Shown: positions 37,301 to 61,300, counted from the first letter of the stretch. The stretch is DNA of 64,000 nt from Nitrospirales bacterium (GCA_965205795.1 OZ242177.1:2440424-2504423); one strand, 5' to 3'. The notes: a model not told the origin generated them from the sequence alone. Made by a program: numbers and translations.

Positions 37301-40300
37301 GCGGCACGACAGTAACCTTGAGTGACAACAGCGCCATGCCGACCTTCACCGCGCCCGCGGTTGCCACTGCCCTGACGTTTTCACTGATTGTCAACGACGG
37401 CCGTGTGGATTCCGCCGCCGACACCGTGACCATCATAACGATGCGGCCGTTGCCCGGACTTGTGCGGAACTTCACCGCCGCTCCTGCGGCTCGTGGTGGT
37501 CGTGTCATTTTGAGGTGGGAGGCGCCGGACAATGCGGTTGTGGCGGATGTAACCCACTACGAGCTGCAAAGTAAGGCAAGCAGTGCAACAGCCTTTGAGC
37601 CTTTTGAAACACTCCCGGTTGGGAGCACCACCACGCAATTCGTTCTCCCCCGCAGGACATCCGTCACCTCCTTTGAATTTCGTATCAGAGCCTTGGCGGC
37701 GGGAGCGGTGGGTGACTGGGTGAGCACTGACGGCCCCAGTCCCGGCGCCTTGTTAAGCGTGAACACCCTTCTGGAGATCGCAGAGGGTGGCACGGCGACC
37801 TATACGGTGGTCTTGCAGACTGTGCCGACCGCTTCGGTCACAGTTGTGATCAGTAGCGACAATGACGATGTGACGGCGACAGGCCTCACATTCACGGTGG
37901 CGAATTGGAATATTCCGCAAGCGGTGATTGTCACCGCGGCGCAGGATGCTGATGGCTCTGATGATGTGGGTATTAGTCTCACGCACGTTTTTGAGGGAGG
38001 CGGCTACAGAGGTGTGAGCGCGAGAGTGGATGTGAATGTGGTGGACGATGACCCGACCTTCGGCACGACGACCATTGCCGCCCAGATCTACACCGTGGGT
38101 GTGGACATCGGCAGCGTCATCCTGCCGACCGCCACCACCGGCACCGGCGCATTGACCTATACCCTGACCCCGCTGCCGGCCGGTCTGACCCTGACCGACA
38201 ACATGCTGTCCGGCAGACCGGAGACGATGCAGGCTGCGACCAACCTCACCTACGCAGTGACGGACAGCGACGGCAACACCGACACCATTGACTTCACCGT
38301 CACCATCAACGTTTCTCCGGGCATCACCGGCGACACGACCGGCATGGTCACAGAAGGCGCGACCGTCACCACCGCGACCGGCCGGTTGGACAATCCCGCC
38401 GGCGACTTTGTGTCCCAGGCCGGCGCCACCGACCGCACCAACGGGCAGGGCGCCTACGGCAGCTTCACCCTGACCGGGAACGGCGCGTGGACCTATACGC
38501 TGGATAACGAGGACGACGACACCAACGCGCTGCCCGTCGGCGCCACGGTGACCGACATCTTTACCGCCATCTCCGCCGCCGACACCAGCGTGACGCAAGC
38601 CGTCACCATCACCGTCACCGGCGCCAATGACGCGCCGACCGCCGATGCGGGCGACGCCCGGACCGTGCCCCAGGGCTCCACGGTGGCGCTGATTGGCCGC
38701 GGCACCGACCCGGACACCGGCGACCAGGCGGAGCTGACCTATGCGTGGACACAGACCGGTGGCACGCCGGCCGTCACCCTCGTCCCCGGGATGGACGACA
38801 CCACGGTCAATTTCGCCGCGCCTGCTGTTGACGCGAACACGCCCCTGACGTTCACGCTGACCGTGACCGACCGGCAGACTGTCGCGGACACCGACATCGT
38901 GACGGTCACCATTAATGCGGGCAGCACGGCCTCCACCATCACCGGCGACATTTTCGGCCTCGTCACCGAAGACGCGGAGCCGAACACCGCCACCGGCGCG
39001 CTGACCGTCACGGACGGGGGCGGCGCCGTGCGCAATTTCGCGGCACAGGCCGTGCCGGGCACCTACGGCAGCTTCACGCTGGCCGCGAGCGGTGTCTGGA
39101 CCTACACGCTGAACAACGAGAACATCGTCATCAACGCCCTGTCTCTGGGCTCCGAGGAGCTCCAGGAGACCTTCCGGGTGGTGGCCGCCGACAGCACCCC
39201 GGCGACCGTGACCATCTTTATCAACGGCGCCAATGACCTCCCCACCGTCGAGGTTGAGCCGACGCAGACCGTTGGCGAAGAGACCCTCGTGACGCTGACC
39301 GGCACCGGCGATGACGTGGATACCGGCGACCTGTTGCGCTATCAGTGGACACAGATTGATTTCGAGCTTGCCGACCCCACGGCTGTCACGCGGCAGGTCA
39401 CGCTGACCAACGCGGACACCGCCACCGCCACCTTCACCGCGCCCAATTTCCTTGAGCCCACGCCCCTGACGTTCACGCTGACCGTCGCCGATGTGCATAG
39501 CGCCGGCGTCACCGCCACGGTGATCGTCACCGTGGACGCGGACGACGACCCGGTGCGCATCGGCGGCGAGCAGACCGGCAGCGTCACCGAAGACGGGGCG
39601 GTGTTGGCGCGGGGCGAGTTGACGATCCGTGATCCGGATGGCCACGACCGCTTCCGGGCCCAGACAGCCGTGGCCGGCGCCTATGGCACGCTGGCGAGCC
39701 TGACCGCCACCGGCGTGTGGGTCTACGCGCTGAACAACAATGACGAAGTCGTTCAGAACCTGCGGGCGACCGACGTGCGCACCGAGACCTTCACCGTGCG
39801 GGCCGAGGACAACACCCCCGTGAGCCTCACCATCACCGTCAACGGCGCCAATGACGCGCCGACCGCCAGGGGCCGGTTCCGGAGCGACGCGCTGATCATT
39901 GACAGCAGCGTCACCGGGGGGAGTGCGGTGAGTCTGGTCGGCACGGGCACCGACCGGGATACCGGCGAGCAGGCGGCGTTGCGCTATGCATGGACGCAGG
40001 TCAGCGGCCAGCCCGACGTCCTGCTGACCGACGCGGACACCGCCACCGCCACCTTCACCGCGCCGTTGTTGCTCGCGGAGACGACGCTGGTGTTTGAGTT
40101 GACGGTCACCGACGGGCAAGCGGCCGCCATCGCGCCGGTGCGCGTGCCCGTGCGGGCGGCGGACAACATCCCGGCGGTCTTTACCGGCGGGACGCGCGGC
40201 CGCGTCACCGAAGACGGGGAGCCGACCGCCACCGACACGCTGACCGTGACCGACGCGGATGGCTCTGATAATACCGTCCAGCCGCAGGCCGACATTGTCG

Positions 40301-43300
40301 GCGCCTATGGCAGGTTCACGCTGAACGCCGCGACCGGCGTGTGGAGCTACACACTGAATAACGGCACGGACGCCGTCCAGGGCCTGGCCGCGAACGAGGC
40401 CGTGGTGGAGCGGTTTGCGGTGCGGGCCGCGGACGGCACGCGGGGCGAGGTCGTCATCACCGTCCACGGCGCCAACGACGCGCCGACCGTGACCGCCACC
40501 AGCGAGCCGGTGACGGCCAATGAGGGCACCACCGTGACCCTGACCGGCACCGGCACCGACCCGGATCGGCAAGACCGGTTGCGCTATCAGTGGACGCCGT
40601 CCGCCGGCACCCCGACCATCGGGCTCTTCCCCTCCGCGACCTCGGCCATCGTCACCTTTGTCGCGCCGGAGTTGATCGACGGCACGGATCTGGCGTTCAC
40701 GCTGACCGTCACCGACCCGTCGGAGGTCACCGCCACCGCCACGGTCACCGTCATGGTCACGGCGGATGACGATGCGGCGGTCTTTGGCGGCACCCGCACC
40801 GGCAGTGTCACCGAAAGCAGTGCCACCGAAAACAACGCGCAGGAGAGCCTGGCCTTTGGCCTGCTGACCGTCACCGACGCGGACGGCCCCAACCGCTTTG
40901 AGGCGCAGACCGGCGTGGCCGGCACCTACGGCACGTTCACCCTGTTCGCCGCCGGGAACTGGCGGTACGATCTGGATAACGACCTTCCCGCCACCAATGC
41001 CCTGGCCGCACCCGTTGCGGGCACCGACCTGGCCACCGAGCGCTTCCCGGTGCGGCAGGCCACCGAGGACACCATCGGGGGCGCCGAGGACCCGGCGGGT
41101 GTGGTCATCACCATCACCGGCGTCAATGACGCGCCGACCGTCCTGGCTGGCGACGACCGGATTGTGAGGGAGACCGTTGCGGTGACCCTGACCGGCACGG
41201 GCACCGACCCGGAGACCAGCGACCCGGCGGCCCTGACCTATGCGTGGACGCAGACCGGCACGCCGACCGTCACGCTGACCAACGCGGACACCGCCACGGC
41301 CACCTTCACCGCGCCCGATTTGACCGCGAACACAGACCTGACGTTTACGCTGACCGTGACCGACCCGCAGAGCGCCGAGGGCACGGATACGGTGGTCATC
41401 GTGGTGACCGCCCTCGTCAACAGACCGGCGATCATCAGCGGTGACAGGACCGGCACCGTGACCGAAGACGCTCCCGCCACTGTCGCCAACGGCCGGCTGG
41501 AGGTGTTCGACTCGGACGACGGCGACAGCACTGACGTCCAGTTACAGGGCGGCCCCCTCGGCCTCGGCACCTACGGCACCTTCACGGTGGCCACGGGCGG
41601 GCTGTGGACCTATACGCTGGATAACGACGACGACGACACCAACGCGCTGGCGGGCGGCGACCGGGGCACTGAGCGGTTCACGGTTGTGACCGGCGACGGC
41701 ACCGAAGTGCTGGTGGCGATCACCGTCATCGGCGCCGATGATCTCCCGGAGGCGATCACCGGCCAGACCACCGGCCGCGTCACCGAAGATGCCGACGTGG
41801 CGGAGACCACCGGCACGCTGACCGTGACCGACCCGGATGGCCCGGCGGGTGCAGCTGTGTTCCAGGCGCAGGGGCGCGTCGTAGGTATCTACGGCACGTT
41901 CACCCTGGCCGCGACCGGCGAGTGGACCTATACGCTGGATAACGCCGACCCCGAGACCAACGCCCTGGCCGCGGGCGCCACGGCGACGGACGTCTTGACG
42001 GCGGTCGCCGCTGACGCCCCCGGCCTGACGCAAGTGATCACCATCACCATCACCGGCGCCGCCGCCCCGGTGATCGTCGGCGGCCAGCTCACCGGCAGGA
42101 CAACGGAAGACGCGCTCCGCGACTCAGTCAACCCAGGCATCATCAACGAAATCAGCGGCATCTTGAGCGCGACGGACCCGGATAACCCCGGATTGAGATA
42201 CACCTTCCGTCTCGCGCCCGGCGACTTCCAGGGCACCTACGGCACCTTCACCCTCGGCGGCGTTGGCCCCCCCCGCTGGCGCTACCGGCTGGACAATGCT
42301 GACCCGGACACCGACCTCCTGACCGCGGGTGAGACCGTCACCGACACGTTCACCTTGACGGTGGAAGATGCAGACGGAACCCGCATCACCCGGCTCCAGG
42401 ATGCAGACGGCAACGCCATAGACACGTTGGCCGTCACCATCACCATCGTCGGCACGGATGACCCGCCGACGATCATCGGCGCGCTCACCGGGGCGGTCAC
42501 GGAAGACGGCGACGAGGTCATGACCACTGCCACCGGCATGCTGACCGTGACCGACGTGGACAACGCTGATCCCGCTCCCGCCACCGCGTTTGCTCCGGCA
42601 GATGACGACGGTACCTACGGCGCCTTCACGCTGACCGATGACGGCGCGTGGACCTATACGCTGGATAACGCCGTCCCCGAGACCAACGCGCTGGCTGCGG
42701 GCGTGACGATGCGCGACGTCTTTACGGCAGTCTTCGCCACCGACACCAGCGTGACGCAAGCCGTCACCATCACGGTCACCGGGGCCAATGACGCGCCGAC
42801 CGCCGACGCGGGTGCCTCCCAGTCCGTGTTTGTCGGCGACACGGTCACGCTGGCGGGCCGCGGCACCGACCTGGATACCGGCGACAGCATTGCCGCCTAC
42901 GCCTGGACGCAAAGCGCCGGGCCGGCAGTGACCTTGAGTGCCACCGACGTGGCCCAGCCGACCTTCGCGGCGCCGAGTGTGACGAGCGCCACCGCGCTGA
43001 CCTTTGCCTTGGTGGTCAGCGACGGCGAAGCGGATTCACTCGCCGACACCGTCACCATCACCGTCTTCCCGGGCATCACCGGCGACACGACCGGCATGGT
43101 CACGGAAGACGCGACCGTCACCACCGCGACCGGCGTGTTGGACAATCCCATCGGCGGCTTTGAGGCCCAGGCCGGCGCCTCCGACCGGGCCAACGGGCAG
43201 GGCGCCTACGGCCGCTTCACCCTGGCCACCGACGGGGTGTGGACCTATACGCTGGATAACGCCGCCGCCGACACCAACGCGTTGCCCGCCGGCGCCACGG

Positions 43301-46300
43301 TGACCGACATCTTTACCGCCGTCTCCAATATGAACGCGGGCGTGACGCAAGCCGTCACCATCACCGTCACCGGCGCCAATGACGCGCCGACTGCGCTGCC
43401 CGGCGACGACCGGACCGTGCCCCAGGAGGCCCCGGTGACTCTGAGCGGCCGCGGCACCGACCCGGACACCGGCGACCAGTTGACCTATGCGTGGACACAG
43501 ACCGGTGGCACGCCGACCGTCACCCTCGCCCCCGCCCCCGGGGCCCCCGCCACCGGGGTCACCTTCACCGCGCCCATGGTTGGCATGGATGACACGCCCC
43601 TGACGTTCACGCTGACCGTGACCGACCGGCAGGGCGCCGCGGACACCGCCCCCGTGATGGTCACCATTGATGCGGACAGCACGGCCTCCGACATCACCGG
43701 CGACATTTTCGGCGGCATCACCGAAGACGCGGAGCCGAACACCGCCACCGGTGCGCTGACCGTGACCACGTCGCAGGTCGGGAGCACTGACATCATGGGC
43801 ACGTTCCAGCCGACCGACGTGGTCGGCCCCTACGGCACCTTCACGCTGGCCGCCACCGGCGCGTGGACCTACACGCTGAACAACGAGGCGGCCGCCACCG
43901 ACGCCCTGTCCTCGGACGCTGAGATTCAGGAGACCTTCCGGGTGGTGGCCGCCGACCCGGCCGGCACCCCGGTGACCGTGACCATCTTTATCAACGGCGC
44001 CAACGACCGCCCCACCGTCGTGGTCGAGCCGGAGCAGACCGTGAACGAAGAGACCCCCGACGGTGCTGCGACCCTCGTGACGCTGACCGGCACTGGCGAT
44101 GACGTGGATACCGGCGATCGGGACCGGTTGCGCTATCAGTGGACACAGATTGATTTTGAGCTTGCCGACCCCACGGCTGTCACGCGGCAGGTCACGCTGA
44201 CCAACGCGGACACCGCCACCGCCACCTTCACCGCGCCCAATTTCATCGAGCCCACGCCCCTGACCTTCACGCTGACCGTCGCCGATGTGCTTAGCGCCGC
44301 CGTCACCGCCACGGTGATCGTCACCGTGGACGCGGACAATGACCCGGTGCGCATCGGCGGCGAGCAGACCGGCAGCGTCACCGAAGACGGGGCGGTGTTG
44401 GCGCGGGGCGAGTTGACGATCCGTGATCCGGATGGCCACGACCGCTTCCAGGCCCAGACGGACGTGGCCGGCACCTATGGCACGCTGGATAGCCTGACCG
44501 CCACCGGCGTGTGGGTCTACGCGCTGAACAACGGTGACGAAGACATCCAGAGCCTGACGGCGACCGACGTGCGCACCGAGACCTTCACCGTGCGGGCCGA
44601 GGACGGCACCGAGGGGAGCCTCACCATCACCGTCACCGGCGCCAATGACGCGCCGACCGCCAGGGGCCGGTTCCGGAGCGACGCGGTGATCATCGACAGC
44701 AGCGTCACCGGGGGGAGTGCGGTGAGTCTGGTTGGCACGGGCACCGACCGGGATACCGGCGAGCAGGCGGCGTTGCGCTATCAATGGACGCAGGTCAGCG
44801 GCCAGCCCGACGTCACGCTGACCGACGCGGACACCGCCACCGCCACCTTCACCGCGCCGTTGTTGCCCGCGGAGACGACGCTGGTGTTTGCGTTGACCGT
44901 CACCGACGGGCAAGCGGCCGCCATTGCGCCGGTGCGCGTGCCCGTGCGGGCGGCGGACAACATCCCGGCGGTCTTTGGCGGGACCCGCGGCAGCGTCACC
45001 GAAGACGGGGAGCTGACCGCCACCGACACGCTGACCGTGACCGACGCGGACCCGGACGACTCGGATACCGTCCAGGCGCAGGCCGACCTTGTCGGCGCCT
45101 ATGGCACGTTCACGCTGGACGCCGCGACCAGCGTGTGGAGCTACACATTGAATAACGACCTGGGCGCCGTCCAGGGCCTGGCCGCGAACGAGGCCGTGGT
45201 TGAGCGGTTTGCCGTGCGGGCCGCGGACGGCACGCGGGGCGAGGTGGTCATCACCGTCAACGGCGCCAACGACGCGCCGACCGCGACCGCCACCGGACCG
45301 GCGACGGCCGAGGAGGGTACCACCGTGACCCTGACCGGCACCGGCACCGACCCGGATCGGCAAGACCGGTTGCGCTATCAGTGGACGCCGCCCGCCGGCA
45401 TCCCGACCATCGGGCTTCTCCCCTCCGCGACCTCGGCCCGCATCACCTTTGTCGCGCCGGAGTTGATCGACGGCACGGATCTGACGTTCACGCTGACCGT
45501 CACCGACCCGTCGGAGGTCACCGCCACCGCCATGGTCACCGTCATGGTCACGGCGGAGAACGATGCGGCGGTCTTTGGCGGCACCCACACCGGCAGTGTC
45601 ACCGAAAGCAGTGCCACCGAAAACAACGCGCAGAGGAGCCTGGCCTTTGGCCTGCTGACCGTCACCGACTCGGACGGCCCCAACCGCTTTGCGGCGCAGA
45701 CCGGCGTGGCCGGCACCTACGGCACGTTCACCCTGTTCGCCGCCGGGAACTGGCGGTACGATCTGGATAACGACCTTTCCGCCACCAATGCCCTGGCCGC
45801 GCCCGTTGCGGGCACCGACCTGGCCACCGAGAGCTTCCCGGTGCAGCAGGCCTCCGAGGGCGCCACCGAGGGCACCGTTGACCCGGCGGGTGTGGTCATC
45901 ACCATCACCGGCGTCAATGACGCGCCGACCGTCCTGGCTGGCGACGACCGGATTGTGAGGGAGACCGTCGCGGTGACCCTGACCGGCACGGGCACCGACC
46001 CGGAGACCAGCGCCCCGGCGGCCCTGACCTATGCGTGGACGCAGACCGGCGGCACGCCGACCGTCACGCTGACCAACGCGGACACCGCCACGGCCACCTT
46101 CACCGCGCCCGATTTGACCGCGAACACAGACCTGACGTTTACGCTGACCGTGACCGACCCGCAGAGCGCCGAGGGCACGGATACGGTGGTCATTGTGGTG
46201 ACCGCCCTCGTCAACAGACCGGCGATCATCAGCGGTGACCGGACCGGCACCGTGACCGAAGACGCTCCCGCCACTGTCGCCAACGGCCAGCTGGAGGTGT

Positions 46301-49300
46301 TTGACTCGGACGACGGCGACAGCACTGACGTCCAGTTACAGGGCGGCCCCCTCGGCCTCGGCACCTACGGCACCTTCACGGTGGCCACGGGCGGGCTGTG
46401 GACCTATACGCTGGATAACGCCGACCCCGAGACCAACGCGCTGGCGGGCGGCGACCGGGGCACGGAGCAGTTCACGGTTGCGACCGGCGACGGCACCGAG
46501 GTGCTGGTGGCGATCACCGTCATCGGCGCCGATGATCTTCCGACGGCGATCACCGGCCAGACCACCGGCCGCGTCACCGAAGATGCCGACGTGGCGGAGA
46601 CCACCGGCACGCTGACCGTGACCGACCCGGATGGTCCGGCGGGTGCAGCCGCGTTCCAGGCGCAGGGGCGCGTCGTGGGCATCTACGGCACGTTCACCCT
46701 GGCCGCGAATGGCGGGTGGACCTATACGCTGGATAACGCCGACCCCGAGACCAACGCCCTGGCCGCGGACGCCACGGCGACGGACGTCTTTACGGCGGTC
46801 GCCGCTGACGACACCGGCCTGACGCAAGTGATCACCATCACCATCACCGGCGCCGCCGCCCCGGTGGTCGTCGGCGGCCAGCTCACCGGCAGTACGACGG
46901 AAGATGAGTTCACCGACGACGGATTCAACGAAATCAACGGCTTCTTGAGCGCGACGGACCCGGATAACCCCGGATTGAGATACACCTTCCGTCTCGCGCC
47001 CGGCGACTTCCAGGGCACCTACGGCACCTTCACCCTCGGCGGCGTTGGCCCCCCCCGCTGGCGCTACCGGCTGGACAATGCTGACCCGGACACCGACCTC
47101 CTGACCGCGGGTGAGACCGGCACCGACACGTTCACCTTGACGGTGGAAGATGCAGACGGAACCCGCATCACCCTGCTCCAGGATGAAGACGGCAACGCCA
47201 TAGACACGTTGGCCGTCACCATCACCATCTTCGGCACGGATGACGCGCTGCCGGTCATCTCCATCGCCGCCGTGACATCCCCGGTGACCGAGGGGACGGC
47301 GGCGACCTTCACGCTGACGGCGAGCTCTGCACCGGTGGCAGACCTGACGGTCAGTGTGACGGTCACCGACCCGGGCAACTTCATTGCCGGGCCGGCGCCG
47401 ACGATGGTGACGATTGCCGCCAGCGCAACGACGGCCACGCTGACCGTGCCGACCACACCTGACAACGCCGACGAGGCCAACGACACGATAACGGTGGAGG
47501 TGGCGCCGAACGCCGGCTACACGGTTGGCGACCCGGCCACAGCCAGTGTCAGGATAGACGACGACGACGACGTGCCGACGCTGGCGATTAGCTCGTCAGA
47601 GCCACCGGCAGTGGAGGAGGGCGACGACAGCGAGAGCGAGTCGCCGGCGCGATTGCTCTACACGGTGACGCTGACCGGGGAGACGGAGCGGACGGTGACC
47701 GTGGAGTACGGCATGAGTGGCACGGCGACCGAGAACACCGACTACCGGGTGAACACGGGGGTCGGAATACCCGGCCGTCTGACGTTTGCGCCGGACACGA
47801 CGAGCCGGACGATTGAAGTGCTGGTAACGGGTGACACGATTGACGAGGATGACGAGACGGTCATCATCACGCTGTCAAACCCGGACAACGCAACGATCAC
47901 AACAGCCGCTGGCACGGGCACGGGTACGATTACCGACGATGACACCCTGAGCATCTCGATCGTCGCCGTGACACCCTCGGTGACCGAAGGGACGGCGGCG
48001 ACCTTCATGCTGACGACCGTGACGGCAGACCCTGCTCCGGCGACGGCGTTGACAGTCATGGTGTCCGTCACCGACTCAGGCAATTTCCTTGCCGGGCCGG
48101 CGCCGACGATGGTGACGATTGCCGTCGGCGAAACGACCGCCCTGCTGACGGTGGAGACCGATGACGACAGCATCGGCGAGGCGAACGGCATGATCACGGC
48201 CACGGTGACCGACGGGATCGGCTATACAGCCGGCGACCCCCCGGCCACCGCCGATGTCACGATCACCGATAACGATGTCCCAACGCTGGCGATTGACTCG
48301 CCGAGTGTGCGGGAAGACGCAGCGGGATTGACCTACACGGTGACGCTGACCGGGGCGACGGAGCAGACGGTGACGGTGGGCTACGCGGTGACAGATGGTA
48401 CGGCGACCACGGCCGACTACACCGCCGTGTCCACCGCCGGCACACTGACGTTTACGCCGGGCACGCTGACACAGACGATTGAGGTGACGGTGACGGATGA
48501 CAGCATTGAAGAGACCGACGAGACGGTCATCGTCACCCTGTCGACTCCGGTCAACGCAACGATCACCACCGCCATCGGCACCGGCACGATTACCGACGAC
48601 GACGCGGACCCCGTGGTCACCCTGGTGCTGACCCCGGCCACGATCGCCCAGAGCGGCGGCGTGAGCACCGTCACGGCCAGGCTGGACCAGGCCTCGTCCG
48701 CGCCAACCACGGTGACCGTCAGTGCGACCCCGGTCAGCCCGGCGGTTGCGGGTGATTACAACTTGAGTGACCCGTCGATGCTGACCATTGCCGCCGGGGC
48801 GACCAGCAGCACCGGGCTCGTCACCGTCACCGCCGTGAATCGCGGTGCCACGACTCTCCGTGAGGTGACGGTGTCGGCCACGGTCGTCAACGACAACGGC
48901 TTCACGGGGCCGGCTGACGAAACCCTGACCATCGCCGCCGCGGTGCCGGTGCCGGGGGCGGTGCTGGTCGGCACACTGACCGAAGCCACCCTGAACGGTG
49001 CGACGGTGACGGTGACGCTGGAGAACACGGCATACGTGGGCTCGCTGAGTACAGACAACTTCACGCTGACGCCGCAGAACGTGCCGGGCGTCCTGAGAGT
49101 GAACACGGTCAGCCTCGACAGCAACACCGAGGCTACGCTGACGCTGGCGTATGATGGCACGGACCTCACTGCCAACGGCACGTTGTCCGTCACGGTACTG
49201 GATTCCGGGCACACCGGCAGCGGCGACCTGACCACCGACAGCGTGCCGATTCTGGCCATCACCGACGGCATCACCGGCGCCACGACCGGCACGGTGACGG

Positions 49301-52300
49301 AAGACGATCCTCTGGCCGCCACGGCGAACGGTCAGTTGACCCTGGCCGGCGACTTTGTGGCCCAGACTGACGCCACTGCCACGACGGGTACCTACGGCAC
49401 CTTTGACCTGACCGCCGCCGGGGCGTGGACCTATATGCTGAATAACGACGACCCCGAGACCAACGCGCTGGCGGGCGGCACCCAGGTCACCGACGTCTTT
49501 ACCGCCGTCTCCGCCGACGACGCCAGCGAGACGCAAGCCGTCACCATCACCGTCACCGGGGCCAATGACGCGCCGACCGCGAATGCCGGGGCTGATCAAC
49601 CCGACGTGCTTGTCGGCGCCACGGTCACGCTGGACGGCCGCGGCAGCACCGACCCGGATACCGACGGCCGCATTGCCACCTATGCCTGGACGCAACGCGC
49701 CGGGCCGGAGGTAACCTTGAGCGCCACCAACGTGGCCCGGCCGACCTTCACGGCGCCGAGTAGTATGACGCGCGTCACCGCGCTGACCTTTGAGCTGATT
49801 GTCAACGACGGCAGTGTGGATTCCGCCGCCGACACCGTGACCATCATAACGATGCGGCCGTTGCCCGGACTTGTGCGGAACTTCACCGCCGCTCCTGCGG
49901 CTCGTGGTGGTCGTGTCATTTTGAGGTGGGAGGCGCCGGACAATGCGGTTGTGGCGGATGTAACCCACTACGAGCTGCAAAGTAAGGCAAGCAGTGCAAC
50001 AGCCTTTGAGCCTTTTGAAACACTCCCAGTTGGTAGCACCACCACGCAATTCGTTCTCCCCCGCAGGACATCCGTCACCTCCTTTGAATTTCGTATCAGA
50101 GCCTTGGCGGCGGGAGCGGTGGGTGACTGGGTGAGCACTGACGGCCCCAGTCCCGGCGCCTTGTTAAGCGTGAACACCCTTCTGGAGATCGCAGAGGGTG
50201 GCACGGCGACCTATACGGTGGTCTTGCAGACTGTGCCGACCGCTCCGGTCACAGTTGCGATCAGTAGCGACAATGACGATGTGACGGCGACAGGCCTCAC
50301 ATTCACGGTGGCGAATTGGAATATTCCGCAAGCGGTGATTGTCACCGCGGCGCAGGATGCTGATGGCTCTGATGATGTGGGTATTAGTCTCACGCACGTT
50401 TTTGATGGAGGCGGCTACAGAGGTGTGAGCGCGAGAGTGGATGTGAATGTGGTGGACGATGACCCGACCTTCGGCACTGCGACCATTGACGCCCAGATCT
50501 ACACCGTGGGCATGGACATCGGCAGCGTCATCCTGCCGACCGCCACCACCGGCACCGGCGCATTGACCTATACCCTGACCCCGCTGCCGGCCGGTCTGAC
50601 CCTGACCGACAACATGCTGTCCGGCATACCGGAGACGATGCAGGCGACGACCAACCTCACCTACACAGTGACGGACAGCGACGGCAACACCGACACCATT
50701 GGCTTCACCGTCACCATCAACGTCTCCCCGGGCATCACCGGCGACACTGTCGGCGTGGTCACGGAAGGCGGCGCCGCGGTTACGACCATTGATACCGCCA
50801 CCGGCCGGTTGTTCCTGCCCGGCGGCTTTGAGGCCCAGACCGGCGCCACCGGCCGCACCAACGGGCAGGGCGCCTACGGCAGCTTCACCCTGACCACCGC
50901 CGGCGTGTGGACCTATGCGCTGAATAACGCCGACCCCGACACCAACGAGCTGGCGGGCGGCGTCCGGGTCACCGACGTCTTTACCGCCGTTTCCGCCGAC
51001 GACGCCAGCGAGACGCAAGCCGTCACCATCACCGTCACCGGCGCCAATGATGCGCCGACCGCCGACGCGGGTGCCTCCCAGTCCGTGTTTGTCGGCGACA
51101 CGGTCACGCTGGCGGGCCGCGGCACCGACCCGGATACCGGCGACAGCATTGCCGCCTATGCCTGGACGCAAAGCGGCAGCCCGACGGTGATCTTGAGTGA
51201 CGCCACCGTGGCCCGGCCGACCTTCACGGCGCCGGACGTGATGAGCGCCACCACGCTGACCTTTGCGCTGGTGGTCAACGATGGCGAAGCGGATTCAGAC
51301 CGCGCCGACACCGTCACCATCACCGTCTTCCCGGGCATCACCGGCGACACGACCGGCATGGTCACAGAAGACGCGACCGTCACCACCGCGACCGGCGTGT
51401 TGGACAATCCCATCGGCGGCTTTGAGGCCCAGGCCGGCGCCTCCGACCGGGCCAACGGGCAGGGCGCCTACGGCCGCTTCACCCTGGTCACCGGCGGGGC
51501 GTGGACCTATACGCTGGATAACGCCGCCGCCGCCACCGACGCGCTGCCCGCCGGCGCCACGGTGACCGACATCTTTACCGCCGTCTCCAGCGAGAACCCG
51601 GGCGTGACGCAAGCCGTCACCATCACCGTCACCGGCGCCAATGACGCGCCGACCGCGCTGCCCGGCGACGACCGGACCGTGCCCCAGGAGGCCATGGTGA
51701 ATCTGAGCGGCCGCGGCACTGACCCGGACACCGGCGACCAGGCGGAGTTGACCTATGCGTGGACACAGACCGGTGGCACGCCGACCGTCACCCTCGCCCC
51801 CGCCCCCGGGGCCCCCGCCACCGGGGTCACCTTCACCGCGCCCATGGTGATGGATGACACGACCCTGACGTTCACGCTGACCGTGACCGACCGGCAGGGC
51901 GCCGCGGACACCGCCCCCGTGATGGTCACCATTGATGCGGACAGCACGGCCTCCGACATCACCGGCGACATTTTCGGTTTCGTCACCGAAGACGCGGAGA
52001 CCGCCACCGCCACCGGCATCCTGACCGTGACGGCCGGCGGCACCGTTGGCGAGTTCCAGGCGCAGCCGATGCAGCCGACGGATCCGCCGGTGGTCGGCGT
52101 CTACGGCACCTTCACCCTGGCCGCCACCGGCGCGTGGACCTACACGCTGGACAACGAGGACATCGACACCGACGCCCTGTCTCTGGGCCCCGAGGAGATC
52201 CAGGAGACCTTCCGGGTGGTGGCCGACGACATGGTCGGCACCCCGGTGACCGTGACCATCTTTATCAACGGCGCCAACGACCGCCCCACCGTCATGGTTG

Positions 52301-55300
52301 CGCCGACGCAGACCGTTGGCGAAGAGACCATTGTGACGCTGACCGGCACTGGCGATGACGTGGATGCCGGCGACATGTTGCGCTATCGGTGGACACAGAG
52401 CGATTTTGAGCTTGCCGACCCCACGGCTGTCACGCGGCAGGTCACGCTGACCAACGCGGACACCGCCACCGCCACCTTCACCGCGCCCAATTTCATCGAG
52501 CCCACGCCCCTGACGTTCACGCTGACCGTCGCCGATGTGCATAGCTCCGGCGTCACCGCCACGGTGATCGTCACCGTGACCGCGAACGACGACCCGGTGC
52601 GCATCGGCGGCGAGCAGACCGGCAGTGTCACCGAAGACGGGGCGACGTTGGCGCGGGGCGAGTTGACGATCCGTGATCCGGATGGCCACGACCGCTTCCG
52701 GGCCCAGACGGCCGTGGCCGGCGACTATGGCACGCTGGCGAGCCTGACCGCCCCCGGCGTGTGGGTCTACGTGCTGAACAACAATGACGATGTCGTGCAG
52801 AACCTGCGGGCGACCGACGTGCGCACCGAGACCTTTACCGTGGAGGCCGAGGACGACACCCGCGTGATCCTCACCATCACCGTCACCGGCGCCAATGACG
52901 CGCCGACCGCCACGGGCCGGTTCCGGAGCGACGCGGTGATCATTGACAGCAGCGTCACCGGGGGGAGTGCGGTGAGTCTGGTTGGCACGGGCACCGACCG
53001 GGATACCGGCGAGCAGGAAGCATTGCGCTATCAATGGAGGCAAGTCAGCGGCCAGCCCGACGTCACGCTGACCGACGCGGATATGGCCACCGCCACCTTC
53101 ACCGCGCCGTTGTTGCCCGCGGAGACGACGCTGGTGTTTGAGTTGACGGTCACCGACGGGCAAGCGGCCGCCATTGCGCCGGTGCGCGTGCCCGTGCGGG
53201 CGGCGGACAACAGCCCGGCGGTCTTTAGCGGGACGCGCGGCCGCGTCACCGAAGACGGGGAGCTGACCGCCACCGCCACGCTGACCGTGACCGACGCGGA
53301 CCCGGACGACCCGGAGACCATCCAGGCGCAGGACGACGACCTTGTCGGCACCTATGGCACGTTCACGCTGGACGCCGCGACCGGCGTGTGGAGCTACACA
53401 TTGAATAACGACCTGGGCGCCGTCCAGGGCCTGGCCGCGAACGAGGCCGTGGTTGAGCGGTTTGCCGTGCGGGCCGCGGACGGCACACGGGGCGAGGTCG
53501 TCATCACCGTCAACGGCGCCAACGACGCGCCGACCGCGACCGCCACCGGACCGGCGACGGCCGAGGAGGGTACCACCGTGACCCTGACTGGCACCGGCAG
53601 CGACCCGGATCGGCAAGACCGGTTGCGCTATCAGTGGACGCCGCCCGCCGGCATCCCGACCATCGGGCTTCTCCCCTCCGCGACCTCGGCCATCGTCACC
53701 TTTGTCGCGCCGGAGTTGATCGACGGCACGGATCTGGCGTTCACGCTGACCGTCACCGACCCGTCGGAGGTCACCGCCACCGCCACGGTCACCGTCATGG
53801 TCACGGCGGATGACGATGCGGCGACCTTTGGCGGCACCCGCACCGGCAGTGTCACCGAAAGCAGTGCCACCGAAAACAACGTGCAGAGGAGCCTGGCCTT
53901 TGGCCTGCTGACCGTCACCGACGCGGACGGCCCCAACCGCTTTGCGGCGCAGACCGGCGTGGCCGGCACCTACGGCACGTTCACCCTGTTCGCCACCGGG
54001 AACTGGCGGTACGATCTGGATAACGACCTTTCCGCCACCAATGCCCTGGCCGCGCCCGTTGCGGGCACCGCGCTGGCCACCGAGCGCTTCCTGGTGCGGC
54101 AGGCCACCGAGGACACCATCGGGGGCGCCGAGGACCCGGAGCGTGTGGTCATCACCATCACCGGCGTCAATGACGCGCCGACCGTCCTGGCTGGCGACGA
54201 CCGGATTGTGAGGGAGAACGTTGCGGTGACCCTGACCGGCACGGGCACCGACCCGGAGACCAGCGACACGGCGGCCCTGACCTATGCGTGGACGCAGACC
54301 GGCACGCCGACCGTCACGCTGACCAACGCGGACACCGCCACGGCCACCTTCACCGCGCCCGATTTGACCGAGGATATGCCTCTGACGTTTACGCTGACCG
54401 TGACCGACCCGCAGAGCGCCGAGGGCACGGATACGGTGGTTATCGTGGTGACCGCCCTCGTCAACAGACCGGCGATCATCAGCGGTGACCGGACCGGCAC
54501 CGTGACCGAAGACGCTCCCGCCACTGTCGCCAACGGCCAGCTGGAGGTGTTTGACTCGGACGGCGGCGACAGCACTGACGTCCAGTTACAGGGCGGCCCC
54601 CTCGGCCTCGGCACCTACGGCACCTTTGAGGTGGACACGGACGGCGAGTGGACCTATACGCTGGATAACGCCGACCCCGAGACCAACGCGCTGGCGGGCG
54701 GCGACCGGGGCACTGAGCGGTTCACGGTTGTGACCGGCGACGGCACCGAAGTGCTGGTGGCGATCACCGTCATCGGCGCCGATGATCTCCCGGAGGCGAT
54801 CACCGGCCAGACCACCGGCCGCGTCACCGAAGATGCCGTCGTGGTGGAGACCACCGGCATGCTGGCCGTGACCGACCCGGATGGTCCGGCGGGTGCTGCC
54901 GCGTTCCAGGCGCAGGGGAGCGTCGTGGGTATCTACGGCACGTTCACCCTGGCCGCGAATGGCGAGTGGACCTATACGCTGGATAACGCCGACCCCGAGA
55001 CCAACGCCCTGGCCGCGGACGCCACGGCGACGGACGTCTTTACGGCGGTCGCCGCTGACGACACCGGCCTGACGCAAGTGATCACCATCACCATCACCGG
55101 CGCCGCCGCCCCGGTGGTCGTCGGCGGCCAGCTCACCGGCAGTACGACGGAAGATGAGTTCACCGACGACGGATTCAACGAAATCAACGGCTTCTTGAGC
55201 GCGACGGACCCGGATAACCCCGGATTGAGATACACCTTCCGTCTCGCGCCCGGCGACTTCCAGGGCACCTACGGCACCTTCACCCTCGGCGGCGTTGGCC

Positions 55301-58300
55301 CCCCCCGCTGGCGCTACCGGCTGGACAATGCTGACCCGGACACCGACCTCCTGACCGCGGGTGAGACCGGCACCGACACGTTCACCTTGACGGTGGAAGA
55401 TGCAGACGGAACCCGCATCACCCTGCTCCAGGATGAAGACGGCAACGCCATAGACACGTTAGCCGTCACCATCACCATCGTCGGCACGGATGACCCGCCG
55501 ACGATCAGCGGCGCGCTCACCGGGGCGGTCACGGAAGACAGCGACGAAGACAGGACCACCGGCCTGCTGACCGTGACCGCCGTGGACAACGCTGATCTCG
55601 TCACCGCGTTTACTGAGCAGGCCGATGTCCCCGGCACCTACGGCAGCTTCACGCTGACCGAGGGCGGCGCGTGGACCTATACGCTGGATAACGCCGACCC
55701 CGAGACCAACGCGCTGGCCGCGGGCGTGACGAGGAGCGACGTCTTTACGGTCGTCTTCGCCGCCGACACCAGTGTGACGCAAGCCGTCACCATCACCGTC
55801 ACCGGGGCCAATGACGCGCCGACCGCCGACGCGGGTGCCTCCCAGTCCGTGTTTGTCGGCGACACGGTCACGCTGGACGGCCGCGGCGGCACCGACCCGG
55901 ATACCGGCGACAGCATTGCCGCCTACACCTGGACGCAAAGCGGCAGCCCGACGGTGACCTTGAGTGACGCCACCGTGGCCCGGCCGACCTTCACGGCGCC
56001 GGACGTGATGAGTGCCACCGCGCTGACCTTTGCGCTGGTGGTCAACGACGGCGAAGCGGATTCAGACCGCGCCGACACCGTCACCATCACCGTCTTCCCG
56101 GGCATCACCGGCGACACGACCGGCATGGTCACAGAAGACGCGACCGTCACCACCGCGACCGGCGTGTTGGACAATCCCATCGGCGGCTTTGAGGCCCAGG
56201 CCGGCGCCTCCGACCGGGCCAACGGGCAGGGCGCCTACGGCCGCTTCACCCTGGTCACCGGCGGGGCGTGGACCTATACGCTGGATAACGCCGCCGCCGC
56301 CACCGACGCGCTGCCCGCCGGCGCCACGGTGACCGACATCTTTACCGCCGTCTCCAATACGAACGCGGGCGTGACGCAAGCCGTCACCATCACCGTCACC
56401 GGCGCCAATGACGCGCCGACCGCGCTGCCCGGCGACGACCGGACCGTGCCCCAGGAGGCCATGGTGAATCTGAGCGGCCGCGGCACTGACCCGGACACCG
56501 GCGACCAGGCGGAGTTGACCTATGCGTGGACACAGACCGGTGGCACGCCGACCGTCACCCTCGCCCCCGCCCCCGGGGCCCCCGCCACCGGGGTCACCTT
56601 CACCGCGCCCATGGTGATGGATGACACGACCCTGACGTTCACGCTGACCGTGACCGACCGGCAGGGCGCCGCGGACACCGCCCCCGTGATGGTCACCATT
56701 GATGCGGACAGCACGGCCTCCGACATCACCGGCGACATTTTCGGTTTCGTCACCGAAGACGCGGAGACCGCCACCGCCACCGGCATCCTGACCGTGACGG
56801 CCGGCGGCACCGTTGGCGAGTTCCAGGCGCAGCCGATGCAGCCGACGGATCCGCCGGTGGTCGGCGTCTACGGCACCTTCACCCTGGCCGCCACCGGCGC
56901 GTGGACCTACACGCTGGACAACGAGGACATCGACACCGACGCCCTGTCTCTGGGCCCCGAGGAGATCCAGGAGACCTTCCGGGTGGTGGCCGACGACATG
57001 GTCGGCACCCCGGTGACCGTGACCATCTTTATCAACGGCGCCAACGACCGCCCCACCGTCATGGTTGCGCCGACGCAGACCGTTGGCGAAGAGACCATTG
57101 TGACGCTGACCGGCACTGGCGATGACGTGGATGCCGGCGACATGTTGCGCTATCGGTGGACACAGAGCGATTTTGAGCTTGCCGACCCCACGGCTGTCAC
57201 GCGGCAGGTCACGCTGACCAACGCGGACACCGCCACCGCCACCTTTACCGCGCCCAATTTCATCGAGCCCACGCCCCTGACCTTCACGCTGACCGTCGCC
57301 GATGTGCATAGCTCCGGCGTCACCGCCACGGTGATCGTCACCGTGGACGCGGACAATGACCCGGTACTCATCGGCGGCGAGCAGACCGGCAGCGTCACCG
57401 AAGACGGGGCGGTGTTGGCGCGGGGCGAGTTGACGATCCGTGATCCGGATGGCCACGACCGCTTCCGGGCCCAGACGGCCGTGGCCGGCGCCTATGGCAC
57501 GCTGGCGAGCCTGACCGCCCCCGGCGTGTGGGTCTACGCGCTGAACAACAATGACGAAGTCGTGCAGAACCTGCGGGCGACCGACGTGCGCACCGAGACC
57601 TTCACCGTGCAGGCCGAGGACAACACCCCCGTGATCCTCACCATCACCGTCACCGGCGCCAATGACGCGCCGACCGCCACGGGCCGGTTCCGGAGCGACG
57701 CGCTGATCATTGACAGCAGCGTCATTGGGGGGAGTGCGGTGAGTCTGGTCGGCACGGGCACCGACCGGGATACCGGCGAGCAGGAAGCATTGCGCTATCA
57801 ATGGAGGCAAGTCAGCGGCCAGCCCGACGTCCTGCTGACCGCCGCGGACACCGCCACCGCCACCTTCACCGCGCCGTTGTTGCCCGCGGAGACGACGCTG
57901 GTGTTTGAGTTGACGGTCACCGACGGGCAAGCGGCCGCCATTGCGCCGGTGCGCGTGCCCGTGCGGGCGGCGGACAACAGCCCGGCGGTCTTTAGCGGGA
58001 CGCGCGGCCGCGTCACCGAAGACGGGGAGCTGACCGCCACCGCCACGCTGACCGTGACCGACGCGGACCCGGACGACCCGGAGACCATCCAGGCGCAGGA
58101 CGACGACCTTGTCGGCGCCTATGGCACGTTCACGCTGAACGCCGCGACCGGCGTGTGGAGCTACACATTGAATAACGACCTGGGCGCCGTCCAGGGCCTG
58201 GCCGCGAACGAGGCCGTGGTTGAGCGGTTTGCCGTGCGGGCCGCGGACGGCACGCGGGGCGAGGTCGTCATCACCGTCAACGGCGCCAACGACGCGCCGA

Positions 58301-61300
58301 CCGCGACCGCCACCGGACCGGCGACGGCCGAGGAGGGTACCACCGTGACCCTGACCGGCACCGGCACCGACCCGGATCGGCAAGACCGGTTGCGCTATCA
58401 GTGGACGCCGCCCGCCGGCATCCCGACCATCGGGCTTCTCCCCTCCGCGACCTCGGCCCGCATCACCTTTGTCGCGCCGGAGTTGATCGACGGCACGGAT
58501 CTGACGTTCACGCTGACCGTCACCGACCCGTCGGAGGTCACCGCCACCGCCATGGTCACCGTCATGGTCACGGCGGAGAACGATGCGGCGGTCTTTGGCG
58601 GCACCCACACCGGCAGTGTCACCGAAAGCAGTGCCACCGAAAACAACGCGCAGAGGAGCCTGGCCTTTGGCCTGCTGACCGTCACCGACTCGGACGGCCC
58701 CAACCGCTTTGCGGCGCAGACCGGCGTGGCCGGCACCTACGGCACGTTCACCCTGTTCGCCGCCGGGAACTGGCGGTACGATCTGGATAACGACCTTTCC
58801 GCCACCAATGCCCTGGCCGCGCCCGTTGCGGGCACCGACCTGGCCACCGAGAGCTTCCCGGTGCAGCAGGCCACCGAGGGCGCCACCGAGGGCACCGTTG
58901 ACCCGGCGGGTGTGGTCATCACCATCACCGGCGTCAATGACGCGCCGACCGTCCTGGCTGGCGATGACCGGATTGTGAGGGAGAACGTTGCGGTGACCCT
59001 GACCGGCACGGGCACCGACCCGGAGACCAGCGACACGGCGGCCCTGACCTATGCGTGGACGCAGACCGGCGGCACGCCGACCGTCACGCTGACCAACGCG
59101 GACACCGCCACGGCCACCTTCACCGCGCCCGATTTGACCGCGAACACAGACCTGACGTTTACGCTGACCGTGACCGACCCGCAGAGCGCCGAGGGCACGG
59201 ATACGGTGGTCATCGTGGTGACCGCCCTCGTCAACAGACCGGCGATCATCAGCGGTGACCGGACCGGCACCGTGACCGAAGACGCTCCCGCCACTGTCGC
59301 CAACGGCCAGCTGGAGGTGTTTGACTCGGACGGCGGCGACAGCACTGACGTCCAGTTACAGGGCGGCCCCCTCGGCCTCGGCACCTACGGCACCTTTGAG
59401 GTGGACACGGACGGCGAGTGGACCTATACGCTGGATAACGCCGACCCCGAGACCAACGTGCTGGCGGGCGGCGACCGGGGCACTGAGCGGTTCACGGTTG
59501 TGACCGGCGACGGCACCGAAGTGCTGGTGGCGATCACCGTCATCGGCGCCGATGATCTCCCGGAGGCGATCACCGGCCAGACCACCGGCCGCGTCACCGA
59601 AGATGCCGACGTGGTGGAGACCACCGGTACGCTGGCCGTGACCGACCCGGATGGTCCGGCGGGTGCTGCCGCGTTCCAGGCGCAGGGGCGCGTCGTGGGT
59701 ATCTACGGCACGTTCACCCTGGCCGCGAATGGCGAATGGACCTATACGCTGGATAACGCCGACCCCGAGACCAACGCCCTGGCCGCGGACGCCACGGCGA
59801 CGGACGTCTTTACGGCGGTCGCCGCTGACGACACCACCCTGACGCAAGTGATCACCATCACCATCACCGGCGCCGCCGCCCCGGTGGTCGTCGGCGGCCA
59901 GCTCACCGGCAGTACGACGGAAGATGAGTTCACCGACGACGGATTCAACGAAATCAACGGCTTCTTGAGCGCGACGGACCCGGATAACCCCGGATTGAGA
60001 TACACCTTCCGTCTCGCGCCCGGCGACTTCCAGGGCACCTACGGCACCTTCACCCTCGGCGGCGTTGGCCCCCCCCGCTGGCGCTACCGGCTGGACAATG
60101 CTGACCCGGACACCGACCTCCTGACCGCGGGTGAGACCGGCACCGACACGTTCACCTTGACGGTGGAAGATGCAGACGGAACCCGCATCACCCTGCTCCA
60201 GGATGAAGACGGAAACGCCATAGACACGTTGGCCGTCACCATCACCATCGTCGGCGCCAATGACGCGCCGACCGCCGACGCGGGCAACGCCCAGACCGTG
60301 CCCCGGAACGCCATGGTGAATCTGATCGGTAGCGGCACCGACACGGAAACCGGCGATGCGGCGGCGCTGACCTATGCGTGGACGCAGATCGACATCACGC
60401 CCGGCGTCACGCCCGGCGTCACGCTCGACCCGACCGGGCTCGCCTCATCGGTCACCTTCATAGCACCCCCGGTCACCGAGGACACGCCCCTGACGTTTGA
60501 GCTGACCGTGACCGACCCGCAGGGCGCCACGGGCACCGACACCGTGCGCATCACCATTGATGCGGACCGCACGGCGTCCATCATCAGCGGCGACTTTGCC
60601 GGCACCGTCACCGAAGACGTGGAGCCGAACACCGCCACCGGCATGCTGACCGCGACGGCCGAGGACACCATGCGCGATTTCGTGCCCCAGACCGTGCCGG
60701 GCACCTACGGCAGCTTCATGCTGGCCGCCACTGGCACGTGGACCTACACGCTGGACAACACGCCGGGCAGCGCCACCGACGCTCTGCCGATGGACAGCGC
60801 ACGCACTGAGCAATTCCCGGTGGCGGACATTGACAGCAGCCCGGCGCTGGTGAACATCACGGTCACCGGCGCCAATGACCCGCCGACCGCCGATGCCGGC
60901 AACGCCTTCAGCGTTGACGAAGGCGATCCGGTCACGCTGGACGGCAGCGGCTCCAGCGACCCGGATGTCGACGAGGGAATGGCCCTGACCTATCAGTGGA
61001 CGCCGGTCGCCGGCACGCCGACCGTCACGCTCACTGATGCCGATACCGCCACGCCCGGCTTCACCGCGCCCGCAGTAGACGAGGACGCGATCCTGACATT
61101 CATACTGACGGTCACCGACCCGCAGCGCGTCACGGACACCGCCACGGTGGCCGTCACCGTGCGTGCGCTGCCGGTCGTCACTCTGGTGCTGACCCCGCCC
61201 GCGATCACCCAGAGCGGCGGCGTGAGCACCGTCACGGCCAGGCTGGACCAGGCCTCGTCCGCGCCGACCACGGTGACCGTCAGTGCGGCCCCGGTCAGCC

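Follow-up and report, generated by a model that had tools for sequence, protein, structure and literature searches.

We analyzed a 64,000-nucleotide (nt) stretch of DNA from a Nitrospirales bacterium (GCA_965205795.1, OZ242177.1:2440424-2504423; hereafter, the window), which is filled from end to end by the repetitive coding sequence of a giant adhesin-like gene. Frame +1 is free of stops through all 21,333 codons of the window, as compared to 49 to 1,256 stops in each of the five other frames, and the G+C content (GC) of its codons is 86% at the third position (GC3), 62% at the first and 56% at the second. Because the frame lacks stops and has this codon-position pattern, the window is an internal piece of one very large gene, greater than 64 kilobases (kb) in length and open at both ends. 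The repeated units described below therefore lie inside a single gene, as the initial annotation of this DNA had proposed.

A stop-free reading frame of nested repeats

The product has an acidic composition in which Thr, Ala, Val, Gly and Asp are abundant. It is composed of VCBS/cadherin-like/Big_9 modules that alternate with K319L-type PKD modules, with He_PIG, SWM, Calx-beta and fn3 segments in between. The VCBS model TIGR01965 matches nine stretches per unit (E=2e-162), Cadherin_4 and Big_9 also match, and the PKD motif recurs every 600-650 nt along the window. A solved structure matches the VCBS-type modules (PDB 6XI1, E=3e-35), namely the extender of the RTX adhesin AhLap from Aeromonas hydrophila, whose repeats are Ca2+-stiffened beta-sandwich spacers (PMC7493085). 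By sequence match, the region is an extender of tandem Ca2+-binding-type beta-sandwich (VCBS/BIg) repeats of the kind present in RTX/LapA-type adhesins, and it would be a portion of the extender in a giant adhesin-like protein of the cell surface, a function predicted from domain content. No RTX nonapeptide (GGxGxDxUx) occurs in the 21,333 amino acids (aa) encoded by the window, and the C-terminus of the protein lies beyond it.

The motif ITGDTTGMV, which opens each unit of the larger repeat, is found at nt 568, 20425, 38323, 43075, 51337 and 56104. The four downstream copies (units i to iv) had been annotated as a 4.77-kb repeat, with the same opening noted at the two upstream sites (o1 and o2). 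The unit starts were found where they had been placed and all four copies are real, but the unit core measures only 4.16-4.19 kb; the period of 4.75-4.77 kb holds for the tandem pairs only and includes a 0.59-kb linker (spacing of 4752 nt from i to ii, 4767 nt from iii to iv and 8262 nt from ii to iii). The reading frame and its units are as follows.

1-63999, plus strand: open reading frame (ORF) in frame 1, more than 21,333 aa, both ends open; supported by the absence of stops, GC3 and domain matches
568-3150, plus strand: o1 head, the 5' part of a fifth unit, with patches in common with i, ii and iv
20425-23000, plus strand: o2 head, the 5' part of a sixth unit, with patches in common with i, iii and iv
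38323-42480, plus strand: unit i core, 4158 nt; the 5' 2 kb is nearest to the units at 568 and 20425, and the 3' 2 kb is of the i-iv type
42481-43074, plus strand: inter-unit linker, a junction followed by an 'L' element (42614-43074)
43075-47262, plus strand: unit ii core, 4188 nt
47245-51336, plus strand: spacer between the tandem pairs, with a Calx-beta segment, a segment at 49762-50550 and an L element at 50767-51336
51337-55512, plus strand: unit iii core, 4176 nt
55513-56103, plus strand: inter-unit linker, a junction followed by an L element; homologous to 42481-43074 (86-93%)
56104-60276, plus strand: unit iv core, 4173 nt
1-545, 42614-43074, 50767-51336 and 55633-56103: copies of the L element, from self-comparison and a tile scan

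The arrangement is not strictly head-to-tail. Only i-ii and iii-iv are in tandem, a 4.1-kb spacer separates these pairs, and two more copies lie 18-38 kb upstream. In the spacer, the Calx-beta segment (47245-48949) is 98% identical to 31450-33151, and the 49762-50550 segment is 97-99% identical to 37350-38140. The upstream units o1 and o2 resemble i-iv for their first ~2.5 kb and then diverge from them, constituting a second unit type.

At a higher level, self-comparison and a scan of 300-nt tiles resolve the window into four super-units (~1-20.4 kb, 20.4-38.3 kb, 38.3-51.3 kb containing i and ii, and 51.3 to beyond 64 kb containing iii and iv), with lengths of 19.9, 17.9, 13.0 and at least 12.7 kb, respectively. 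Super-units 1 and 2 are 97% identical over 11 kb (545-11592 versus 20399-31467, offset ~19,860 nt) and share a 1,459-nt exact block (8143-9601 = 28018-29476). The super-units also differ by the presence or absence of kilobase-scale pieces: a 1.35-kb segment (31464-32812) is missing from super-units 1 and 4, a 'T' tail is absent after unit ii, and there is an extra L element before unit iii. The repeat hierarchy starts with beta-sandwich domains of ~100 aa and rises through VCBS+PKD modules of ~600 nt, about seven to eight of which form a 4.2-kb unit, to 13-20-kb super-units. Identity is 63-70% between modules (offsets of ~600 and ~1250 nt), as compared to 92-98% between units, which is the signature of a higher-order repeat.

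Several compositional features of the gene were also considered. Of the 21,333 residues of the protein encoded here, just 6 are Lys and 8 are Cys, and 18% are Thr. Depletion of Lys and Cys was rejected as a special trait, since the homologues described below are also Lys-poor (median 0.9%, many with none), making it a property of the family. A halophile origin, suggested by the acidic, Lys-poor and GC-rich composition, was dropped; the relatives are metagenome-assembled genomes (MAGs) from sponge microbiomes. Frame 2 of the minus strand has only 49 stops, with open stretches of up to 1,543 codons, but the long minus-strand ORFs (e.g. 532-5160 and 7708-12075) were rejected as genes because they mirror the GC3-rich coding of the plus strand; gene callers could mis-report such stretches as genes. 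GC3 falls to 0.54-0.77 at 17401-20424, 37201-38400 and 49801-50400 (window median 0.88). These stretches are the Calx-beta/fn3 segments that precede super-units, and such a segment may have a foreign origin of lower GC. An internal tandem pair of 1.27-kb repeats (17608-18860 and 18880-20156, 84% identity) was also observed.

Mosaic relationships among the units

Over the ~4.17-kb core, unit i is 92.4%, 92.5% and 92.7% identical to ii, iii and iv, respectively, and the remaining pairs are 94.2% (ii-iii), 95.3% (ii-iv) and 97.8% (iii-iv) identical. The initial annotation described this similarity as a checkerboard in which nearest neighbors are exchanged between the 5' and 3' parts of the unit, and the matches on which it relied are confirmed by direct comparison. 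Positions 51753-52043 of unit iii and 56520-56810 of unit iv agree at 291 of 291 sites, and 45378-45716 of unit ii and 58398-58736 of unit iv agree at 339 of 339; these matches lie within longer exact blocks of 880 and 606 nt, respectively. The segment 40587-40925 of unit i is indeed nearest to 53631-53969 of unit iii, by a slight margin (329 of 339 positions, as compared to 323 of 339 for i-ii and 327 of 339 for both iii-ii and iii-iv). A 3-nt indel likewise sets i and iii, which read TQTG-TPTV, apart from ii and iv, which read TQTGGTPTV. The principal tracts are the following.

51599-52478 (iii) and 56366-57245 (iv), plus strand: exact tract of 880 nt; in the run test, 156 variable sites are identical
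45247-45852 (ii) and 58267-58872 (iv), plus strand: exact tract of 606 nt, the two copies 13,020 nt apart
46716-47210 (ii) and 54966-55460 (iii), plus strand: exact tract of 495 nt, of which 375 nt are also identical in iv (59838-60212)
40648-41088 (unit-i coordinates), plus strand: block of ~0.45 kb with 18 sites that join i with iii and ii with iv
46048-46053 (ii) and 59068-59073 (iv), plus strand: GGC GGC at the 3-nt indel; a single GGC is present at 41257-41259 (i) and 54301-54303 (iii)

The four units were tested using a codon-guided alignment that contains 436 variable sites. The grouping (i,ii)(iii,iv) is supported by 65 informative sites, (i,iii)(ii,iv) by 25 and (i,iv)(ii,iii) by 6, and sites supporting the same grouping are clustered: adjacent informative sites agree in 79 of 95 cases, whereas permutation yields a mean of 50 and a maximum of 65 (p<=1e-4). 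The pairwise homoplasy test (PHI) gives p~0.001. In a GENECONV-style test, the longest runs of identical variable sites are 156 (iii/iv), 37 (ii/iv) and 27 (ii/iii), beyond permutation maxima of 52, 24 and 18, respectively, with p<=2e-4 for all three pairs. The checkerboard and its switches of nearest neighbor are thus non-random by permutation, PHI and run tests, and a single consistent tree, named beforehand as the pattern that would contradict it, does not fit the unit.

The nearest paralogue changes repeatedly in all six units, as seen in sliding identities and 300-nt tile scans. Beyond column ~2500, where the unit types differ, a six-unit nucleotide MAFFT alignment was misaligned and its identity values of 55-68% are unreliable, so tile-by-tile BLAST and re-aligned segments were used there instead of the global alignment. 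Unit iv is 98-100% identical to unit iii on both flanks of ~58.2-59.1 kb, and 98-100% identical to unit ii within this interval. The 606-nt exact tract forms the core of this ~0.8-1.0-kb patch in which iv departs from iii. The patch has two breakpoints, leaves the length of the unit unchanged and has its partner 13 kb away, and it appears to be non-reciprocal. Unequal crossing-over cannot yield such a patch, because each event produces one breakpoint and a change in copy number. Inside the patch region, around 41.0-41.3 kb in unit-i coordinates, unit iv alternates between the state of ii and the state of iii over 30-100 nt, a fine mosaic that either a series of short patches or the patchy repair of a single heteroduplex would be expected to leave.

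Exchange extends further than the initial annotation described, taking in all six units, o1 and o2 included. The 38.4-40.4 kb portion of unit i is 93-98% identical to o1 or o2 and only 77-90% identical to ii-iv, while units iii and iv are nearest to o2 at 51.9-52.2 kb. A 224-nt exact block is shared by o2 and iv over a distance of 35.7 kb (21886-22109 = 57565-57788). An 84-nt hypervariable cassette is identical in o2, iii and iv (21117-21200 = 52023-52106 = 56790-56873), and at the same site i and ii carry versions of 66 and 78 nt that cannot be aligned to it. Ten variant clusters of unit i have exact counterparts at homologous positions in o1 and/or o2, and one cluster of unit ii recurs in o1. 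These short clusters resemble alternative cassette 'alleles' from a small pool, combined differently among the units. A 31-nt variant (ATAACGCCGACCCCGAGACCAACGCGCTGGC) is common to ii (46415) and iii (54665), and it is also present out of register at 55688, in the linker before iv, which hints at exchange between non-homologous modules.

Relatives in other genomes and the origin of the mosaic

Single-protein scans of genome, viral and JGI metagenome contigs and a megablast search of plasmids found no close relative; relatives came only from an alignment-based scan and from two ENA metagenome contigs. These two contigs, both from assembly ERZ25069326, encode the nearest proteins and are ~94-95% identical to the window copies, with differences that are mostly in-frame. 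The larger (26 kb) carries two o-type super-units of 12.9 kb each (Ra and Rb), and the smaller (8.4 kb) carries a unit of the i-iv type (L002, referred to as R). Sites that group the o-type copies by genome, (o1,o2)(Ra,Rb), number 329, as compared to 17 and 22 for the two orthologous pairings. The name of the larger contig (ena:ERZ25069326:ctg76862_2x_c, loci L001 and L003, 26,160 nt) flags it as circular; it really consists of two tandem 12.9-kb super-units with fragmented gene calls, and its circularization is probably false and caused by the repeat.

The closest named genome, identified by the alignment-based scan, is a sponge-symbiont MAG of Candidatus Poriferihabitaceae (Gammaproteobacteria, Arenicellales). 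In its giant gene, tail, L element and unit are arranged as they are in the window, and its loci are stop-free over their full length. Four of them (L005, L006, L007 and L011) are spread over 86 kb of contig CBDBJR010000002.1 (50.8-136.9 kb), each stop-free across 8.7 kb, and if they are continuous the MAG gene would exceed 86 kb. Homologues (43-45% aa identity; loci L005-L065 in the genome-contig scan) are found almost only in sponge-microbiome MAGs of many phyla, including Pseudomonadales, Dehalococcoidia, Thermoanaerobaculia, Latescibacterota, Binatia, Nitrospirales and Porifericomitaceae; this spread suggests a niche-linked family or transfer between symbionts.

The MAG copies enable concerted evolution to be examined across genomes. 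Copy L007 has an o-type 3' part: it is 80% identical to o1/o2 versus 58% to i-iv in the multiple alignment, and its tiles continue into o-specific sequence at 88-91% identity. The other two MAG copies lean toward the i-iv type. Because the MAG holds both kinds of copy, the two unit types are older than the split of the window and MAG lineages. Nevertheless, over columns 600-2500 identity is 86-97% among the window copies, whichever their type, and only 73-82% between them and any MAG copy, and the split between the MAG copies and all others has 100% bootstrap support, whereas over columns 2560-2950 it is L007 and the o-type copies that are separated from the rest (93% bootstrap). The heads of the units thus group by genome and the tails by type, a pattern that shows homogenization of the heads across unit types within a lineage while the tails keep their ancestry, which is concerted evolution in the strict sense. 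The proposal of concerted evolution inside one gene, made originally from the window alone, is strengthened by this comparison.

Selection appears to act differently on the reading frame and on the residues that it encodes. Indels between units are all multiples of 3, even in an unconstrained nucleotide alignment, and while ~1.5% of random single-base changes would create a stop, none is observed. Nei-Gojobori dN/dS values, which are inflated by the strong codon bias (GC3 86%), are 1.0-1.2 among i-iv, 0.74 for o1-o2 and ~1.0-1.1 against the MAG copies (dS ~0.22). In alignment columns 2400-2700, units i-iv show 0 synonymous and 7-10 non-synonymous differences. Judged from these comparisons, the amino acid sequence seems weakly constrained or partly diversifying, and the frame strongly protected.

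The initial annotation further proposed that an older 13-kb duplication of two units was later partly overwritten by local homogenization. An old tandem pair and reticulate relationships are both borne out, but this specific history is plausible rather than required. The junction between unit and linker is common to i and iii (86-93%) and is present in R too, indicating that the tandem pair is old. Unit i, however, is equidistant from ii, iii and iv (92.4-92.7%), and its first 2 kb has its nearest match in o1 and o2 (93-98%) rather than in iii. A single patch, either into iv from ii or into iii from an i-like donor, can account for the (i,iii)(ii,iv) signal, and R has a mixture of both states at these sites. 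The 3-nt indel lies at a slippage-prone GGC/GGCGGC site at which R has the long form, and two sites at which iv sides with iii stand between it and the (i,iii)(ii,iv) block. At the 13-kb offset, only the 9-kb two-unit part is colinear, and different pieces follow it: 47245-48949, after ii, matches 31450-33151, while 60300-61200, after iv, matches 30595-31350. A two-unit ancestor is plausible, but evidence for a 13-kb duplication that was later overwritten is thin.

We consider it likely that the mosaic arose by gene conversion among six similar units of one giant adhesin-like gene, supplemented by occasional unequal exchange. The six units would be similar enough for non-allelic homologous recombination, either within one chromosome or between sister chromosomes. 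Most events would be short, non-reciprocal gene-conversion patches of tens of nt to about 1 kb between partners 4.8 to ~36 kb apart, with RecA-type recombination and patchy mismatch repair as the probable enzymology, and unequal crossing-over or deletion would occasionally alter the content of units and super-units. Selection would hold the frame open and tolerate or favor amino acid change. Conversion, together with selection that keeps the frame and tolerates change, would explain why the units are concerted within a genome and diverge between genomes.

Several points weigh against this account. Clustering by genome is lacking in columns 1-600, so homogenization is regional, and part of the likeness of o1 to o2 and of Ra to Rb could stem from separate duplications in the two lineages. 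More than one direction and number of conversion events would fit: in the ii=iv patch, iv may have received sequence from ii, or iii from an i-like donor, and outgroup polarization of the (i,iii)(ii,iv) sites yielded no donor or recipient, as the o-type is too diverged there and R is itself mosaic. Unit order and the exact tracts are as given by the assembly, and the ERZ25069326 contigs have 2x coverage and contain frameshifts. Finally, the adhesin function and the secretion route are predicted from domain content, with the termini of the protein outside the window.

An extension of the conversion account, which we regard as rather unlikely, is that the gene serves as its own cassette library, i.e. 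that short-patch conversion redistributes a limited pool of short variants among the translated units while selection favors diversity, giving sponge-associated cell lines different combinations of host- or matrix-facing surfaces on one giant protein. This idea would fit the three unalignable forms of the 84-nt cassette, which are shared exactly by different subsets of units, as well as dN/dS values of about 1 at both shallow and deep divergence, the 300-nt stretch with 0 synonymous versus 7-10 non-synonymous differences, and the presence of both (i,iii)(ii,iv) states in the relative. However, codon bias inflates dN/dS, weak constraint on stalk domains accounts for these values equally, and there is no sign of a raised or regulated rate.

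Import of patches from other strains, by homologous recombination with the alleles of related bacteria, is unlikely as the source of the mosaic. In columns 600-1100, unit i groups with Rb of the relative (95.4%) and R groups with Ra, the relative's unit R carries both states at the (i,iii)(ii,iv) sites, and inter-strain recombination tracts have been documented in other giant surface-protein genes (PMC12863079). Shared old variants are nevertheless also expected if conversion acts on an ancestral pool, and the exact identities of 880, 606, 495, 224 and 84 nt are all between paralogues in this gene, such that internal donors suffice; the genome, viral, JGI metagenome and plasmid collections that were searched held no closer external donor. 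A history of duplication and deletion only, in which overlapping segmental duplications, deletions and unequal crossovers generate hybrid units with no conversion patches, is very unlikely. Unequal exchange clearly occurred, because the super-units differ by large indels (31464-32812, the 'T' tail and the extra L element) and unit i is hybrid-like, its 5' part being of the o-type and its 3' part of the i-iv type. By itself unequal exchange would not account for the ii=iv tract, which has two breakpoints within a unit whose length did not change and a partner 13 kb away, and the short clusters combined differently in six units would demand an implausible number of exactly length-preserving events.

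The least probable explanation is an artefact of assembly or polishing (mis-ordered units, merged strains, or mis-mapped reads that copied sequence between units during polishing): the window does hold many long repeats (an 11-kb pair at 97% and exact blocks of up to 1459 nt), the close relatives come only from metagenome assemblies, and the probably false circular flag on the 26-kb 2x contig indicates that assemblers stumble here, but passing through exact repeats of 1.46 kb and 11-kb repeats at 97% implies long accurate reads that far exceed the 0.2-0.9-kb tracts, whole-unit mis-ordering cannot produce internal two-breakpoint patches or 30-100-nt alternations, three independent assemblies (L002; ctgR; MAG loci L005-L007) have a like architecture of units and super-units with mosaics of their own, and the frame is intact throughout the window. 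The sponge metagenomes of the relatives were sequenced with PacBio HiFi reads and assembled with metaMDBG (PMC12859430).

Comparison with known adhesins and repeat systems

The closest parallels in protein architecture are the RTX/LapA-type adhesins (AhLap 6XI1, MhLap 6XI3, MpIBP 4P99 and SiiE), as the modules match the extender tetra-tandemer of AhLap (E=3e-35; PMC7493085). Similarities extend to an acidic, Thr-rich composition, the presence of Calx-beta segments, and great length made up almost wholly of Ig-like repeats. The ~120 extender repeats of MpIBP differ very little in DNA sequence, another instance of concerted evolution. The gene described here differs from these adhesins in that VCBS modules alternate with PKD modules rather than forming a single-domain array, and in its three-level hierarchy (module, 4.2-kb unit and 13-20-kb super-unit), the visible part of which encodes at least 21,333 aa. 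The window contains neither a gene start nor neighboring genes; the retention module, the RTX repeats and the genes for type I secretion (and of LapG/LapD type) expected in an RTX/LapA-type system were not seen in it and would lie outside.

Homogenization of coding repeats has been documented in spidroin genes (PMC3933166), in the megasatellites of Candida glabrata (PMC2566889) and through ectopic recombination of yeast FLO genes (PMC3512402). As in these surface or structural proteins, the repeats are more alike within a genome than between species and form mosaics produced by conversion and unequal exchange. Those systems, however, are eukaryotic and have units of tens to hundreds of nt, up to ~1 kb, with no nesting of 4-kb units in 13-20-kb super-units. 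Among bacteria, very large extracellular proteins are encoded by giant genes of Apilactobacillus kunkeei, for which recombination tracts and homogenization have been reported (PMC12863079), and of Omnitrophota (bioRxiv 10.1101/2023.11.21.568195). The events in A. kunkeei take place mainly between strains and between neighboring genes of 3,000-8,000 aa, whereas here they involve internal units of one frame. The MgPa repeats of Mycoplasma genitalium (PMC2169797) offer another likeness, with short segments copied between diverged repeats, mosaic surface proteins and high dN/dS. Known cassette systems of antigenic variation of this type use silent donors outside the expression site, whereas every copy described here is translated as part of one continuous frame. 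This arrangement does not fit the hallmark of programmed cassette-type variation, silent donors kept apart from a single expression site, and nothing in this gene points to a switch that is programmed or of high frequency.

Diverged monomers arranged in highly similar multi-monomer units also characterize the higher-order repeats of eukaryotic satellites, the kringle IV-2 array of LPA and the super-repeats of nebulin, and in all of these homogenization operates at the level of the higher-order unit. The present array differs in being bacterial, fully coding and only partly tandem, with two pairs and two dispersed copies.

The growth of bacterial genes to tens of kilobases, and how such genes stay intact, has been little studied, and elongation by domain duplication is named as an unexplored, open topic in a recent survey of giant genes. 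This locus displays the process at three nested scales in one frame, with clear conversion tracts, a sharp boundary between homogenized and non-homogenized parts, and datable layers, one set by a relative that differs by ~5% and another by a MAG whose synonymous divergence is ~22%. It is a good natural case in which to study the length and reach of conversion tracts, as well as frame-preserving selection versus free amino acid change. It also carries a practical warning, as such genes give rise to contigs falsely called circular, to fragmented gene calls and to long antisense ORFs that are spurious. Compared with the systems above, the locus offers nothing new in mechanism, gene conversion between repeats being already known; what it adds is scale and hierarchy, in the form of 4-kb units nested in 13-20-kb super-units within one bacterial frame of at least 64 kb, with exchange over distances of up to ~36 kb.

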